DNA of 32,000 bases from an uncultured Planctomycetia bacterium (GCA_964536865.1 CAZHYN010000013.1:1-32000), one strand, 5' to 3'. Shown: positions 23,093-27,953, numbered from the stretch's first letter. Program-made: numbers and translations. The notes: a model not told the origin generated them from the sequence alone.

Positions 23093-23124
23093 ATAAACCC
23101 CGCTTTTTTAAAAGCGGGGTTTAT
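23093..23124. terminator. Hairpin terminator after pilA, possibly bidirectional
   Basis: ATAAACCCCGC (23093..23103), loop TTTTTTAAAA, GCGGGGTTTAT (23114..23124), followed by a T-rich run on the plus strand. The hairpin also encodes the last codons and the stop of the convergent minus-strand gene. Confidence 0.7.
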
Positions 23125-25000
23125 TATTTTTATCTCTAAGAATAAGCTTACTTAAGGAGAGGGCAGGCCTAAATTGAGGGTTAAGACTAATTGTTTTTTC
23201 TAGCTCCTTTAAAAAGAGTGGATTCTTCAATTTCATATAAACCAATGCCAGAGCATAATGAGAATAATACCAGTCAGGTTTAATTTCTATAGATTTCTGG
23301 TAAAGCTGTTGGGCTTTGTGTAAATCTCCCTTTTTCTCATAAATTTTTCCCCATAGAAAGTAAGAGTAGAATTCAAAAGGGTTTATTTCTATAGCTTTTT
23401 TTATATATCTTTCTGCCATAGTTAGCTTATTTTCCTCTATATAGATTCGTGCTAACGCTTGGTAAGCTCGTTCACTGTAAGGATTTAATTTTAGAGCTTT
23501 GTTTAAATAATAAAGAGCCTTCTCTTTATCGTTCTTTTTTTCGTAAAGAGTGGCTAAGTTAGTATAGATCTGATATACTCTTGCTTGGTTAGGTTCTAGT
23601 TTTAAAGCTTCACTTAAATATTTTATTGCCTCATCATATTTTCCTTCCATGAAGTAAGTACCTGCTAAATTAACATATATTCCCGCCTTCCAATCTATAT
23701 CTTTGGTAGAGATAGTCAGAGCCTTAAAAAATATTTTCCTTGCCTTTTTTAAATACCCCTTCTCTTTATAACTTACCCCTAAATTTAGCCAGTTTCCTAT
23801 ATGTTGGGGCTCTTTTTCTGTGCCTTTTCTCCACACTAAGGTAGGATAGTTAAGTTGACAATTTCTTTCCACAGTGAATATAGATAGAATGAAGATTACT
23901 CCTAATGCAGGATACAAAAAGTATCTTTTGTTTTTTATATAAAAATTTTTAAAAACCTCCATCAGAATTATGTATATACCTATACTGGGAAGATAAAAGT
24001 GGTGTTCCATAGCAGGTACTTTTAAGGTCGCATAAAACTTCGGAAGAAGCATTAAGAGATACCAAAAAACCCCTAAACTTAAAAGATATATTCTTTTTCT
24101 TAAGAGTAGAAGAGTAAATACAAGAATAATTATTCCCATCAAAGGAAAAAAACCTTGAGGTTGAAGAATAGAATTTAGCTGAGGGTAATAATGCAGGAAA
24201 TTAAGATTATCGGGAAATAAAAATAATCTCAGATAGAAAAAGCTTACCCAACTTTGAATAAGAATATTAGAAAGCGGACTCCTTAATCCTCCAGGAGTAA
24301 TTCCCTTAAAGAAGGCTTTTTTGTAAAGAAAATAGAGGAGAGAAATAGTGATGAGAGAAAATAAAAGAAAAATATTCTTCTTCTCTTTAAAAGTGAATTT
24401 AAGACTCCTATATTGATAAAGAAGGTAGTGGCCTCCTATCAAAAGCGGAAAACATAGCCCTGTTTCCTTAGTTAGCAGAGAAAATACATACAGTAAACAA
24501 CTTAAAGCATATCTTTTCTTTAAATAAAGTAAGAATCCCCCCAAAATAAAAAAAGTTACCATCAAATCCGACCTACTAGATATGTAACTGACCGCTTCGG
24601 TATTTATAGGGTGAACTAAAAACAAAAGGATTATAAGAAAGGCTAAGGTTTTGGGGGTATCTTTTTTTAGAGAAGTTAATAAAAAGTAGAGAAGAGTAGC
24701 ATTTAAGAAGTGAAGAAGAACATTTATGATGCGGTACCCCACAGGGTTAAGACCTCCACCCCAATAATTAAAAGCAAAACTAAGCATAAGAAGAGGTCTA
24801 CACATTCCTTTGGGGATGGGGTAGCTGGTAACATATCCTTTAAAAAACAGAGGGAAGTATTTTGGATTTTTTATGAAAGTATTTTCTTCTATCATATAGT
24901 AGTCATCGAAGATAAAGGGAGCATTAAGAGCACTGCTATAGGTAAGAAGAGAGATAACTACTAAAGAAAGTATTACAAGATAATCAATTTTACTTTTCAC
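23108..25000 (-). CDS. TMTC/PMT-like GT-C membrane glycosyltransferase with a C-terminal TPR array (paralog A)
   Basis: The first-loop motif NAPFIFDDYYMIEENTFIKN resembles the FxFDDxxxIxxN motif of TMTC-type (DUF1736/PMT_2-like) protein O-mannosyltransferases. More than 10 TM segments. The C-terminal roughly 230 aa are TPR repeats. GTG start at 25000. Confidence 0.72.
   Translation of the reverse strand: MKSKIDYLVILSLVVISLLTYSSALNAPFIFDDYYMIEENTFIKNPKYFPLFFKGYVTSYPIPKGMCRPLLMLSFAFNYWGGGLNPVGYRIINVLLHFLNATLLYFLLTSLKKDTPKTLAFLIILLFLVHPINTEAVSYISSRSDLMVTFFILGGFLLYLKKRYALSCLLYVFSLLTKETGLCFPLLIGGHYLLYQYRSLKFTFKEKKNIFLLFSLITISLLYFLYKKAFFKGITPGGLRSPLSNILIQSWVSFFYLRLFLFPDNLNFLHYYPQLNSILQPQGFFPLMGIIILVFTLLLLRKRIYLLSLGVFWYLLMLLPKFYATLKVPAMEHHFYLPSIGIYIILMEVFKNFYIKNKRYFLYPALGVIFILSIFTVERNCQLNYPTLVWRKGTEKEPQHIGNWLNLGVSYKEKGYLKKARKIFFKALTISTKDIDWKAGIYVNLAGTYFMEGKYDEAIKYLSEALKLEPNQARVYQIYTNLATLYEKKNDKEKALYYLNKALKLNPYSERAYQALARIYIEENKLTMAERYIKKAIEINPFEFYSYFLWGKIYEKKGDLHKAQQLYQKSIEIKPDWYYSHYALALVYMKLKNPLFLKELEKTISLNPQFRPALSLSKLILRDKNNKPRF
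24437..24877. repeat. Perfect 441-bp direct repeat, copy 1 (inside paralog A)
   Basis: Base-by-base comparison by eye: 24437..24877 is identical to 26412..26852 (offset 1975). Identity breaks sharply at both ends. Confidence 0.95.
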
Positions 25001-27089: not shown

Positions 27090-27092
27090 TTG

Positions 27093-27953
27093 ATGGGAGT
27101 AACAGTCATTTTGCCTGCTTATAACGAAGCTAAGAATCTGGAAGAGCTCTTACCGAAAGTTTTTCAAGTCTTAAGTGGGAATAATGTAGAGATTATTGTT
27201 GTAGATGATGCTTCCCAAGATAATACTTCCGAAGTAGCTGAAAAATACGGAGCCAAAGTAATAAGAAATCCTTATAATATGGGAAACGGAGCAAGTATAA
27301 AAAGAGGAATAAGAGAGGCAAAAAATGAGATATTAGTTTTAATGGATGCCGATGGTCAGCATCCTCCAGAGGAGATCCCTAAACTACTTAAAGATTTGAA
27401 TAGTTTTGATATGGTGATAGGGGCACGTTTAAATACTCCTCAAGTGTGGTGGCGCTATTTTGCTAATAAAATGTATAACTTTTTAGCTTCCTATGTGAGT
27501 GGGATAAGAATAAAGGATTTAACTTCGGGATTTAGGGGAGTTAAGAAGAGCAGAGTAGTTAAATTTTTATACCTTTTACCAAATACCTTTTCTTATCCTT
27601 CTACTTTAACTTTATCTTTTATAAAAGCTGCCTATCCGATAAAATTTGTCCCTATTAGAGTTTTGCCAAGAAGAGAAGGGAGAAGCAAAATCAATCTCTT
27701 AAGTGATGGATTAAGGTTTTTTATTATTATTGTACGTATTGCTGTCTTTTTTTCTCCCTTAAAAGTATTTTTACCAATAGCTTTGTTTTTCTTTCTCTGT
27801 GGGTTTTTCTATTACCTCTACACGTTTTTGAGTTTCCACCGTTTTACAAACATGAGTGCGGTGCTTCTTACAACCTCGGTGATAATTTTTATGTTAGGCT
27901 TAGTATCAGAACAGATAGCGAATTTGAGGATGGAAAAAATAGATGATAGATAA
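27093..27953 (+). CDS. GT2 polyprenyl-phosphate sugar synthase-like glycosyltransferase (DPM1/GtrB/ArnC-like) with C-terminal TM helices
   Basis: VILPAYNEAKNLEELLPK, VVDDASQDNT, LMDADGQHPPEE (DxD region), then two C-terminal TM segments, which is the GtrB/ArnC-type architecture. TTG at 27090 is the ORF-track start and ATG at 27093 is adjacent. Confidence 0.82.
   Translation: MGVTVILPAYNEAKNLEELLPKVFQVLSGNNVEIIVVDDASQDNTSEVAEKYGAKVIRNPYNMGNGASIKRGIREAKNEILVLMDADGQHPPEEIPKLLKDLNSFDMVIGARLNTPQVWWRYFANKMYNFLASYVSGIRIKDLTSGFRGVKKSRVVKFLYLLPNTFSYPSTLTLSFIKAAYPIKFVPIRVLPRREGRSKINLLSDGLRFFIIIVRIAVFFSPLKVFLPIALFFFLCGFFYYLYTFLSFHRFTNMSAVLLTTSVIIFMLGLVSEQIANLRMEKIDDR

Follow-up and report, generated by a model that had tools for sequence, protein, structure and literature searches.

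A pilin-linked pair of TMTC-like GT-C/TPR proteins and a DPM1/GtrB-type glycosyltransferase as a candidate periplasmic protein O-glycosylation module

What do two membrane glycosyltransferases act on when their genes converge on the gene of a major type IV pilin? The question is raised by a locus in a 32,000-nucleotide stretch of DNA from an uncultured Planctomycetia bacterium (GCA_964536865.1, CAZHYN010000013.1:1-32000; the whole stretch is referred to as the window). The interval analysed, 23108-27953, holds three genes: genes A and B, each encoding a polytopic protein with a core resembling glycosyltransferases of the GT-C fold and a C-terminal tetratricopeptide repeat (TPR) array, and a GT2 gene, encoding a glycosyltransferase of family 2; the prepilin gene lies just outside, downstream of A. 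We read this region as a lipid-carrier-dependent module for periplasmic protein O-glycosylation that would act mainly on the major type IV pilin, and we put the probability of this reading at about 0.6. Such a module had been proposed in a preliminary description of the same DNA, and the proposal is supported by the fold of A and B, their homology to the eukaryotic TMTC proteins, the class of the GT2 enzyme and a survey of the gene trio with pilin genes, observations from which we infer the activity, the sugar and the acceptor. The window itself belongs to a metagenome-assembled genome of Candidatus Omnitrophota, the phylum of all near-identical proteins and named homologues of the window's proteins.

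The reading frames of all three genes are present where the preliminary description had placed them. Gene A (23108..25000, minus strand; 630 residues, GTG start) is the pilin-proximal member of the pair, and gene B (24990..26969, minus strand; 659 residues) is its 5' member. The two frames overlap by 11 nt, which suggests translational coupling, and the proteins are 52% identical overall. The GT2 gene (start at 27090 or 27093, end at 27953, plus strand) is divergent from gene B, and the region between them (26970..27089) carries promoter-like hexamers on both strands (27109-27081, minus; 27058-27085, plus), which are consensus matches only. On the other side, the convergent stop codons of pilA and gene A lie 37 nt apart. 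Both transcripts share, as had been proposed, a palindromic, G+C-rich hairpin (23093..23124), detected by a terminator scan and by folding; it has a 14-bp stem with 6 GC pairs and a T-tail on the plus strand, overlaps the stop codon of gene A and is strong whichever strand is folded (-20.7 and -21.2 kcal/mol; z -6.25 and -5.89).

Both proteins give significant matches for the TPR array (A to TPR_2 with E 3.5e-29, B to TPR_17 with E 2e-26), and an AlphaFold2 model of full-length B, built with an alignment of 74 homologues, shows 11 transmembrane (TM) helices followed by about nine TPR repeats (mean predicted local distance difference test score, pLDDT, 95.5; predicted template modelling score, pTM, 0.92), in agreement with the architecture that had been read from the sequence. 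In A, the core comprises residues 1 to ~385 and the periplasmic TPR region residues ~400-620. The secondary structure of the model and the hydrophobic segments place the N-terminus of the core inside and its C-terminus outside, the sidedness of the TPR array being deduced from the odd number of TM helices together with N-terminal lysine residues.

As a Foldseek search with the full-length model matched TPR proteins only (OGT, SPY and APC), the core was modelled alone (pLDDT 93.1). Against the PDB, 18 of its 20 top matches were GT-C or GT-C-like chains, with probabilities of 0.94-1.00 and TM-scores of 0.40-0.55 (normalised by query length), and these chains included STT3 (human and yeast), ArnT, Pmt1/2, PglB, ALG9, PIG-M, PIGU and AftA; Emb was another GT-C neighbour. 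Matches at probability 1.00 were obtained to STT3 (6s7t, E 6e-4), yeast Stt3 (TM-score 0.55), ArnT (5f15, E 2.8e-3, TM-score 0.50), PglB and Pmt1/2 (19% identity with Pmt1 6p25_A), in a structural comparison of the kind that had been proposed (TMTC, PMT and ArnT); ranked under the GT-C matches were just low-probability transporters and receptors. The modelled structure confirms that the membrane core of A and B has a GT-C fold of class A. A placement with O-antigen ligases or polymerases, which the preliminary description had kept in view, was not found, since no WaaL, Wzy or PglL chain is among the 50 Foldseek matches listed for the core and no Wzy_C signal was detected in either core by Pfam at E<=10.

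At the level of sequence, the ~390-residue membrane part of A and B matched no Pfam model even at E<=10 (PMT_2, DUF1736, PMT and Wzy_C included). Its single NCBIfam match, to AZOBR_p60025 of a 'cell surface glycopolymer formation' family, was below the cut-off and was seen in 24 of 31 clade members. Likewise, no PDB sequence matched the core at E<=10, either with phmmer or when the clade profile was compared with 177,635 PDB sequences including ArnT 5ezm and 5f15. Because the direct Pfam and NCBIfam scans were empty, homology was shown through clade profiles. As query we used residues 1-445 of human TMTC3, in a sequence validated against printed positions and Pfam: 17 of 17 residue positions printed in PMC7801869 coincide (D31/D32, S66-P72, 118-134, K188/E189/Q190/T193, D303/W304, P358/P361 and E375/R376/Y379 were compared), and Pfam PF08409 (DUF1736) matches at 259-330 with E 1.2e-31. 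The clade profile aligned with this query at a probability of 99.7% (hhalign; E 1.2e-26, 377 columns, 24% identity) and scored 156.7 bits in hmmsearch. This strong match, together with the absence of matches among the PDB sequences, indicates by profile comparison that A and B are true TMTC homologues, much closer to TMTC than to ArnT, PMT, STT3 or PglB, and the TMTC-like relationship first proposed from architecture and a loop motif is thus extended to homology over the full length.

Among the family models against which a check had been proposed, those for TPR matched A and B themselves and those for PMT_2 and DUF1736 did not, the PF08409 (TMTC_DUF1736) model giving no match even at E<=10. 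One of the 31 clade members matches this model (3e-6), and members of the wider family reach 15-18 bits, where the cut-off is 27, in the corresponding fourth extracytoplasmic loop (EL4, between TM7 and TM8). Some clade and remoter homologues have precomputed PMT_2 or TMTC_DUF1736 matches; in Joint Genome Institute (JGI) names, a few are called 'protein O-mannosyl-transferase' and one distant homologue (P0101) 'ArnT-like'.

Seven ligand-binding motifs, M1 to M7, have been described for the TMTC family (PMC7801869, Table 4). The FxFDD-type motif of the first extracytoplasmic loop was read in both translations, as had been claimed, being PFIFDDYYMIEEN in A (D32 D33) and SFLFDDNHMIVNN in B (D30 D31), with FDD at 31-33 and 29-31, respectively. 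These two aspartates, which correspond to the DD of M1, are kept (D30/D31 in B) by at least 90% of the 74 aligned sequences, and every one of the 31 clade sequences has D31. Following the numbering of B, M2 (SHKSYRP in TMTC) is represented by PK62GMCR66P67 and then by the common L..LTF..NY, HPIHTEAV in TM3 by HPINTEAV, M3 (RxD) by R141-S-D143 and M4 (KE(T/Q)xxT) by K176 E177 T178. M5 (DW) is I268-H269 in B and D/E-H in the wider bacterial family, M6 (PxxP) retains the second proline only (P319), and M7 (ERxxY) is E331-H332-H333-F334-Y335. The motif residues of A are D32 D33, R68 P69, R143/D145, K178 E179 T180 and E332-Y336. Across the 74 sequences, M1 (DD), M2 (K..RP), M3 (RxD), M4 (KET), E331 and Y335 are invariant or nearly so. 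Judged by these residues, the active site looks preserved but modified, with loss of the metal-ligand Asp and an Arg-to-His exchange at the phosphate-binding position.

The product of the GT2 gene (27093..27953, plus strand, 286 residues; Glycos_transf_2 E 1.7e-33) is the proposed lipid-phosphate-sugar synthase of the module. It carries DDAS at 38-41, DAD at 85-87 and hydrophobic C-terminal helices at ~205-276, and its best solved relative among PDB sequences is the dolichyl-phosphate-mannose synthase of P. furiosus (5mlz, E 3.8e-27), followed by ArnC (1.5e-18) and GtrB sll0501 (1.5e-16); the matches span residues 4-276, and that to GtrB runs through the membrane helices. The GtrB/DPM1/ArnC architecture that had been assigned to this protein is therefore upheld, and by these sequence matches the predicted enzyme class, a polyprenyl-phosphate glycosyltransferase of the DPM1/GtrB/ArnC/AglJ type, is clear. 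Within this class, GT2 scores below the NCBIfam equivalog cut-offs for AglJ (121.7 vs 325 bits), dolichyl-phosphate hexose transferase (85 vs 375), PpgS (76 vs 370) and ArnC (68 vs 529).

The proposed acceptor is the major type IV prepilin of the pilA/mshA-like type (22713..23071, plus strand, 119 residues; N_methyl E 3.4e-7), in which the leader MRRG is followed by FTLIEL and whose N-terminus is matched by PilA, GspG and ComGC models. Its 90% cluster contains Candidatus Omnitrophota proteins that go by the names MshA or prepilin. The mature pilin has 115 residues, and its globular part (residues 54-115) contains 26% serine plus threonine compared with 11% in the long open reading frames (ORFs) of the window, so that the earlier characterization of the pilin as Ser/Thr-rich is borne out.

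To what extent is this neighbourhood conserved? GTDB species representatives were scanned, yielding 77 loci (designated by L and a number), in which ORFs were screened with the clade hidden Markov model, a prepilin regular expression and phmmer using the GT2 of the window. The close clade consists of 33 distinct loci, and 21 of these were evaluable, each flank being 500 nt or longer. In 18 of the 33 loci, no more than 300 nt separate the GT-C gene from a prepilin ORF; among evaluable loci the count is 15 of 21, or 16 with L001, in which the adjacent pilin was overlooked by the regular expression. The background density is 0.014 prepilin ORFs per kb. The linkage of the trio with pilin genes, for which a survey had been proposed, is thus strong, and it occurs in two arrangements. 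In type I, a GT-C pair and pilA are convergent, as in the window; in L001-L003 the tandem GT-C/TPR pair converges on one or two pilin genes at the end of the same type IV pilus (T4P) regulatory cluster. Type II is a co-directional operon in which pilA is followed after 64-101 nt by a single GT-C/TPR gene and then by GT2, and in more than 13 related loci the GT-C gene is placed in this way, co-directional with and 64-101 nt 3' of pilA. GT2 abuts the GT-C gene (2-29 nt) in L014, L023 and L024 and overlaps it in L011, and in the other type II loci the two are separated by an oppositely oriented response-regulator-GGDEF gene; in L014 and L024, pilA, GT-C and GT2 abut as one operon. The smallest gaps in the co-directional operons measure 2-18 nt. 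Overall, 17 of the 33 close loci have a GT2 homologue (E<1e-60) no more than 3 kb away from the GT-C gene. As the linkage to pilA survives both inversion and duplication, it argues for a functional tie of the GT-C/TPR gene to pilA.

The wider family is very large, with 109,072 clusters at 50% identity matching the clade profile, and an adjacent prepilin was found in 6 of 46 distant loci (in Clostridia-labelled metagenome-assembled genomes, a Verrucomicrobiota metagenome-assembled genome and a single-cell genome). Prepilins beside distant GT-C/TPR members were located in L042 (4567-5001), L069 (5357-5794), L076 (5432-5923) and L053 (5293-5700), and the pilin association may extend beyond Omnitrophota. 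Tandem arrays of 3-5 GT-C/TPR paralogues without a pilin neighbour are present in L062, L063, L073, L079 and L080 (Latescibacterota and Gemmatimonadota).

A further feature of the pair, of which the preliminary description made no mention, is an exact direct repeat of 441 nt, which occupies 24437..24877 in gene A (minus strand, residues 42-188) and 26412..26852 in gene B (minus strand, residues 40-186) and is flanked by DNA of 35-55% identity. In L003, a relative of ~90% identity that JGI assembled independently, the two paralogues agree with each other over this tract at 100%, third codon positions included, and the tract also carries lineage-specific substitutions. Partly decayed tracts are present in L005, L001 and L002: the L005 paralogues are 90-100% identical over codons 1-150, and L001 retains an older, 87%-identical patch. 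An assembly artefact was therefore rejected, and the sequence pattern is that of recurrent gene conversion, limited to the donor-binding third of the enzyme. The repeat produces a pair of antisense ORFs opposite A and B (24710-24964, 84 residues, and 26685-26888, 67 residues, both on the plus strand) with the same N-terminus, MKKNIYDAVPHRVKTS, which are almost certainly mirror ORFs and not genes.

The tract extends from the distal part of the first extracytoplasmic loop (EL1) to TM5/EL3 and covers M2, M3 and M4, i.e., the predicted sugar- and phosphate-binding half, and TM6-11 and the TPR array are divergent. Since the donor-binding half is kept identical and the rest has diverged, A and B probably use one donor and differ in the site or acceptor, or else work as a pair resembling Pmt1/Pmt2. 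The A type is restricted to the subclade of the window, where in every case it is the gene nearer to the pilin. B represents the ancestral type, and the single GT-C genes of type II loci are B-like.

Several further genes may belong to the module. A protein with an LPG_synthase_TM domain (30930..31721, plus strand; PF03706 E 2.1e-9), which scores 37 bits against a cut-off of 43 for the TIGR00374 flippase-like domain, could, speculatively, flip the lipid-phosphate-sugar. Proteins of this MprF flippase-like kind, of 256-263 residues and without the synthase domain, are encoded close to the GT2/GT-C genes in the window (30930-31721) and in L014 (8079-8849), L016 (11040-11801) and L027 (5172-5981), in the last of which the gene overlaps the GT-C start codon; it is possible that they serve as polyprenyl-phosphate-sugar flippases in place of GtrA or ArnE/F. 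Immediately upstream in the window lies the gene of an S-adenosylmethionine-dependent methyltransferase (30278..30928, plus strand; Methyltransf_11 E 6e-23), a possible accessory gene with homologues near the GT-C gene in 9 of 33 close loci. The GT9 heptosyltransferase-like gene of the window was rejected as a part of the module, as none of the 32 other close loci has a homologue in the vicinity of its GT-C gene. In two type II loci (L017, 9946-11478; L020, 11121-12617), a polytopic protein of 498-510 residues with DTGGDSAQYIIIGESLA and without a Pfam match is encoded directly after the GT2 gene or ~1 kb downstream, and it may be a second, unclassified GT-C-like enzyme.

Among characterised bacterial proteins, the closest analogue is TfpW of P. 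aeruginosa/paraeruginosa, the D-arabinofuranosyl transferase of group IV pilins, which the preliminary description did not cite. TfpW, a protein of 646 residues, has its N-terminus in the cytoplasm, crosses the membrane with 11 TM helices and ends in a periplasmic TPR domain, and its loop 1 carries an essential DDX motif; ArnT is the best template of its core and OGT that of its TPR domain. Its gene directly follows pilA, and the protein self-interacts and is necessary and sufficient for glycosylation of pilin Ser/Thr residues with D-arabinofuranose (D-Araf) from a polyprenyl-phosphate donor. Compared by its published description, TfpW resembles A and B in size (646 vs 630 and 659 residues), in the GT-C core with loop-1 DDx, in the periplasmic C-terminal TPR array, in the templates of both parts (ArnT and OGT) and in the position of the gene directly beside pilA; its Y-x6-P motif may correspond to Y255-x6-P262 in EL4 here, which we take as a lead only. 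The systems differ in that the donor of TfpW, polyprenyl-phosphate-D-Araf, is supplied by a DprE1/DprE2/DPPR-synthase pathway whose genes lie elsewhere and the glycan is polymerised by TfpW, whereas here a DPM1/GtrB-type GT2 is linked, there are two paralogues instead of one, and the host belongs to another phylum. Pfam scans of 18 window ORFs revealed no Dpr-like or phosphoribosyl-pyrophosphate (PRPP)-transferase genes, and no TfpW-specific NCBIfam model is among the matches of the A/B family. The earlier statement that bacterial TMTC-like proteins are essentially uncharacterised holds insofar as almost none of the family has a known substrate; the architecture itself is not wholly uncharacterised, since TfpW is a demonstrated pilin glycosyltransferase. 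Our literature search found no paper on bacterial TMTC-like enzymes or on pilin glycosylation in Omnitrophota.

The eukaryotic TMTC1-4 (CAZy GT105), O-mannosyltransferases for cadherins, share with A and B the full-length homology across 11 TM helices, the extracytoplasmic C-terminal TPR array, M1 (DD), M2 ((basic)-x3-RP-L..LTF..NY), HPIxTEAV, M3 (RxD/E), M4 (KE(T/Q)) and an RN-W motif before the TPR array, and an amphipathic helix in EL4 is here the equivalent of DUF1736. A DPM1-type donor synthase likewise belongs to both systems. On the other hand, DW of M5 is replaced by I-H, ERxxY of M7 by EHHFY, half of the M6 PxxP is kept and the Pfam TMTC_DUF1736 match is absent; moreover, the host is bacterial, the carrier is presumably of the undecaprenyl type, and the likely acceptor is a pilin instead of cadherin extracellular (EC) domains. 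The three-component systems GtrA/GtrB/GtrC, ArnC/ArnEF/ArnT and CsbB/GtcA/YfhO follow the same logic, in which a GT2 makes a polyprenyl-phosphate-monosaccharide that is used, with a flippase, by an extracytoplasmic GT-C. Their targets, however, are O-antigen, lipid A or teichoic acids, their GT-C enzymes have no TPR arrays, and no GtrA or ArnE/F homologue was seen in our locus, the MprF flippase-like protein being the sole flippase candidate. Enzymes of the PglL/TfpO (PilO) group, from the Wzy_C family, also glycosylate pilin Ser/Thr residues in the periplasm, and tfpO also lies beside pilA, but they have an unrelated O-antigen-ligase-like fold and transfer preassembled oligosaccharides from undecaprenyl diphosphate. 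Synechococcus Ogt, a TPR protein needed for PilA glycosylation, was rejected as an analogue because it is a cytoplasmic GT41 enzyme with N-terminal TPR, unrelated to GT-C. Taken together, the locus is best described as a TfpW-like, pilA-linked GT-C/TPR system that is demonstrably homologous to TMTC, accompanied by a DPM1/GtrB-type donor synthase and duplicated with concerted evolution.

If the region is indeed an O-glycosylation module, the following sequence of events may be envisaged. At the cytoplasmic face, GT2 would load polyprenyl phosphate with one sugar taken from a nucleotide sugar, in the manner of DPM1, GtrB and ArnC, and the resulting lipid-phosphate-sugar would be flipped to the periplasmic face, possibly, though speculatively, by the LPG_synthase_TM-like protein. 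There, B and A would transfer the sugar to Ser/Thr hydroxyls, using the loop-1 DD and the putative donor-binding motifs RP, RxD and KET, with the acceptor protein held by the periplasmic TPR superhelix of each enzyme. The preferred acceptor would be the Ser/Thr-rich globular part of PilA at the inner-membrane stage, before pilus assembly, comparable to TfpW and its neighbouring pilin.

How does this reading stand against other explanations? Some observations weigh against it. The metal-ligand Asp of M5 is, in the aligned sequences, an Ile, with His269 beside it kept, and the phosphate-binding Arg of M7 is a His; A and B stay below the threshold of every Pfam and NCBIfam GT-C model, the sole NCBIfam match of the core, itself below the cut-off, being to a family for cell surface glycopolymer formation. 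In the modelled fold, the cores resemble ArnT, which is a transferase for lipid A, no less than PMT. The synteny counts are not phylogenetically independent, about a quarter of the evaluable related loci have no adjacent pilin, in L027 the GT-C gene sits among glycan genes without a pilin, and the neighbouring GT9, GT4 and methyltransferase genes could serve lipopolysaccharide (LPS) or polysaccharide synthesis. With the replaced M5 and M7 residues in mind, A and B might be considered inactive, TPR-bearing membrane scaffolds for T4P biogenesis of the PilF/PilW/Tgl kind with a degenerate GT-C core, a notion that also draws on the matches of the TPR part to PilW, Tgl and GltE models, all below cut-offs, and on the proximity of the T4P cluster. 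This is very improbable: DD, RP, RxD, KET, E331 and Y335 are invariant or nearly so in 74 sequences, in keeping with a preserved active site, the donor-binding halves are held identical through gene conversion, a dedicated donor synthase is conserved alongside, and the T4P cluster already contains a separate small TPR protein (15902-16621).

It is also conceivable that A and B are glycosyltransferases of the ArnT, GtrC or YfhO-like kind acting on lipid A, LPS core, O-antigen or another glycopolymer, with the TPR array binding a partner or the polymer. ArnT (5f15) is among the best structural matches, GT2 matches ArnC and GtrB, and the neighbours include GT9 heptosyltransferase-like, GT4, methyltransferase and flippase-like genes; the weak glycopolymer-family match in 24 of 31 members, the fusion of the L027 GT-C gene into a glycan cluster and the occurrence of genes for LptD and UDP-Glc dehydrogenase in the vicinity of the L002 pair point in the same direction. 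We nevertheless regard this as quite unlikely, as the clade profile has no sequence similarity to ArnT or any solved lipid-directed GT-C and reaches 157 bits with TMTC, it is enzymes directed at proteins (TMTC, TfpW and OGT) that typically carry a C-terminal TPR array, the GT9 gene is present in 1 of 33 close loci, namely the window itself, and the linkage to pilA would be left unexplained. The lipid A or glycan alternative that the preliminary description had allowed for is thus reduced on the side of sequence; by fold alone, ArnT, the oligosaccharyltransferase subunits and PMT are equally distant. An explanation closer to our own is that A and B O-glycosylate periplasmic or envelope proteins in general, with substrates selected by the TPR array and pilin at most one of them, and that the adjacency to pilA reflects co-regulation. 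It agrees with the homology to TMTC, as TMTCs and PMTs act broadly in the endoplasmic reticulum, with the size of the family, with the 40 of 46 distant members that have no pilin neighbour and often form tandem arrays, and with the close loci without an adjacent pilin. We consider it unlikely because pilA adjacency in the close clade is far above chance and survives inversion and rearrangement, because pilA, GT-C and GT2 abut as one operon in L014 and L024, and because TfpW shows that such an architecture can be dedicated to pilin. On balance, O-glycosylation directed mainly at the pilin is the reading that we prefer.

The pilA gene is the last of a complete T4P cluster with minor pilins, a PilM-N fusion, secretin, PilB, PilC, a histidine kinase, PilZ, a response regulator and an MshEN-PilZ protein. 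The PilM-PilN fusion (10170-11927) has 585 residues, with PilM_2 at 35-396 and PilN at 496-583. Upstream of pilA, a promoter-like site with a TG extension (TTGACT-17-TATTCT; 22659..22687, plus strand) was found by a consensus scan, in which such sites are not above shuffle expectation in the region. Between this site and the MshEN-PilZ gene there is a strong hairpin, GCCGAACUACU...AGUAGUUCGGC (22594-22633; -23.8 kcal/mol, z -4.7), followed by U6 and overlooked by the simple terminator scan, which probably acts as a terminator and thereby sets pilA apart as a separate transcription unit. The genes for the histidine kinase, the PilZ protein, the response regulator and the MshEN-PilZ protein lie between pilC and pilA (19724-22282), and this order is kept in L001, L003, L012, L024, L025 and L037. 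Together with the response-regulator-GGDEF gene between the GT-C and GT2 genes of type II loci, these regulatory inserts suggest control of piliation by cyclic di-GMP in the clade. Just upstream of the pilus cluster, a Ski2/Mtr4-like helicase with DEAD, Helicase_C and DSHCT domains is encoded (4234-6177, minus strand); DSHCT helicases are more typical of eukaryotes, archaea and actinobacteria.

In other bacteria, pilin glycosylation alters phage susceptibility, adhesion and pilus properties, and pili are likely to be central to the life of Omnitrophota, which are regarded as nanobacteria that attach to surfaces or depend on a host. In the bacterial TMTC-type GT-C/TPR family, a substrate is known for almost no member, leaving aside TfpW with its shared architecture. 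In this locus, the enzymes, the probable donor synthase and a small candidate substrate that should be easy to express, the mature pilin, are found side by side, which makes the target of a bacterial TMTC-like protein, its sugar and the choice made by the TPR array testable. The concerted evolution of the donor-binding half only is, in addition, a natural experiment on how the parts of a GT-C enzyme contribute to donor and acceptor specificity. A bolder proposal, tentative and on present evidence more likely wrong than right, is that the locus represents the prokaryotic ancestor type of eukaryotic O-mannosylation by DPM1 and TMTC with its native substrate, the pilin, still linked, and that A and B form an obligate heterodimer resembling Pmt1/Pmt2, whose donor-binding halves are kept identical by ongoing gene conversion as the acceptor-binding halves (TM6-11 and TPR) diverge. 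If so, it would be the first tractable model of the way in which a TPR array guides a GT-C enzyme to a folded protein, and would open a functional route into a bacterial family with over 100,000 sequence clusters.

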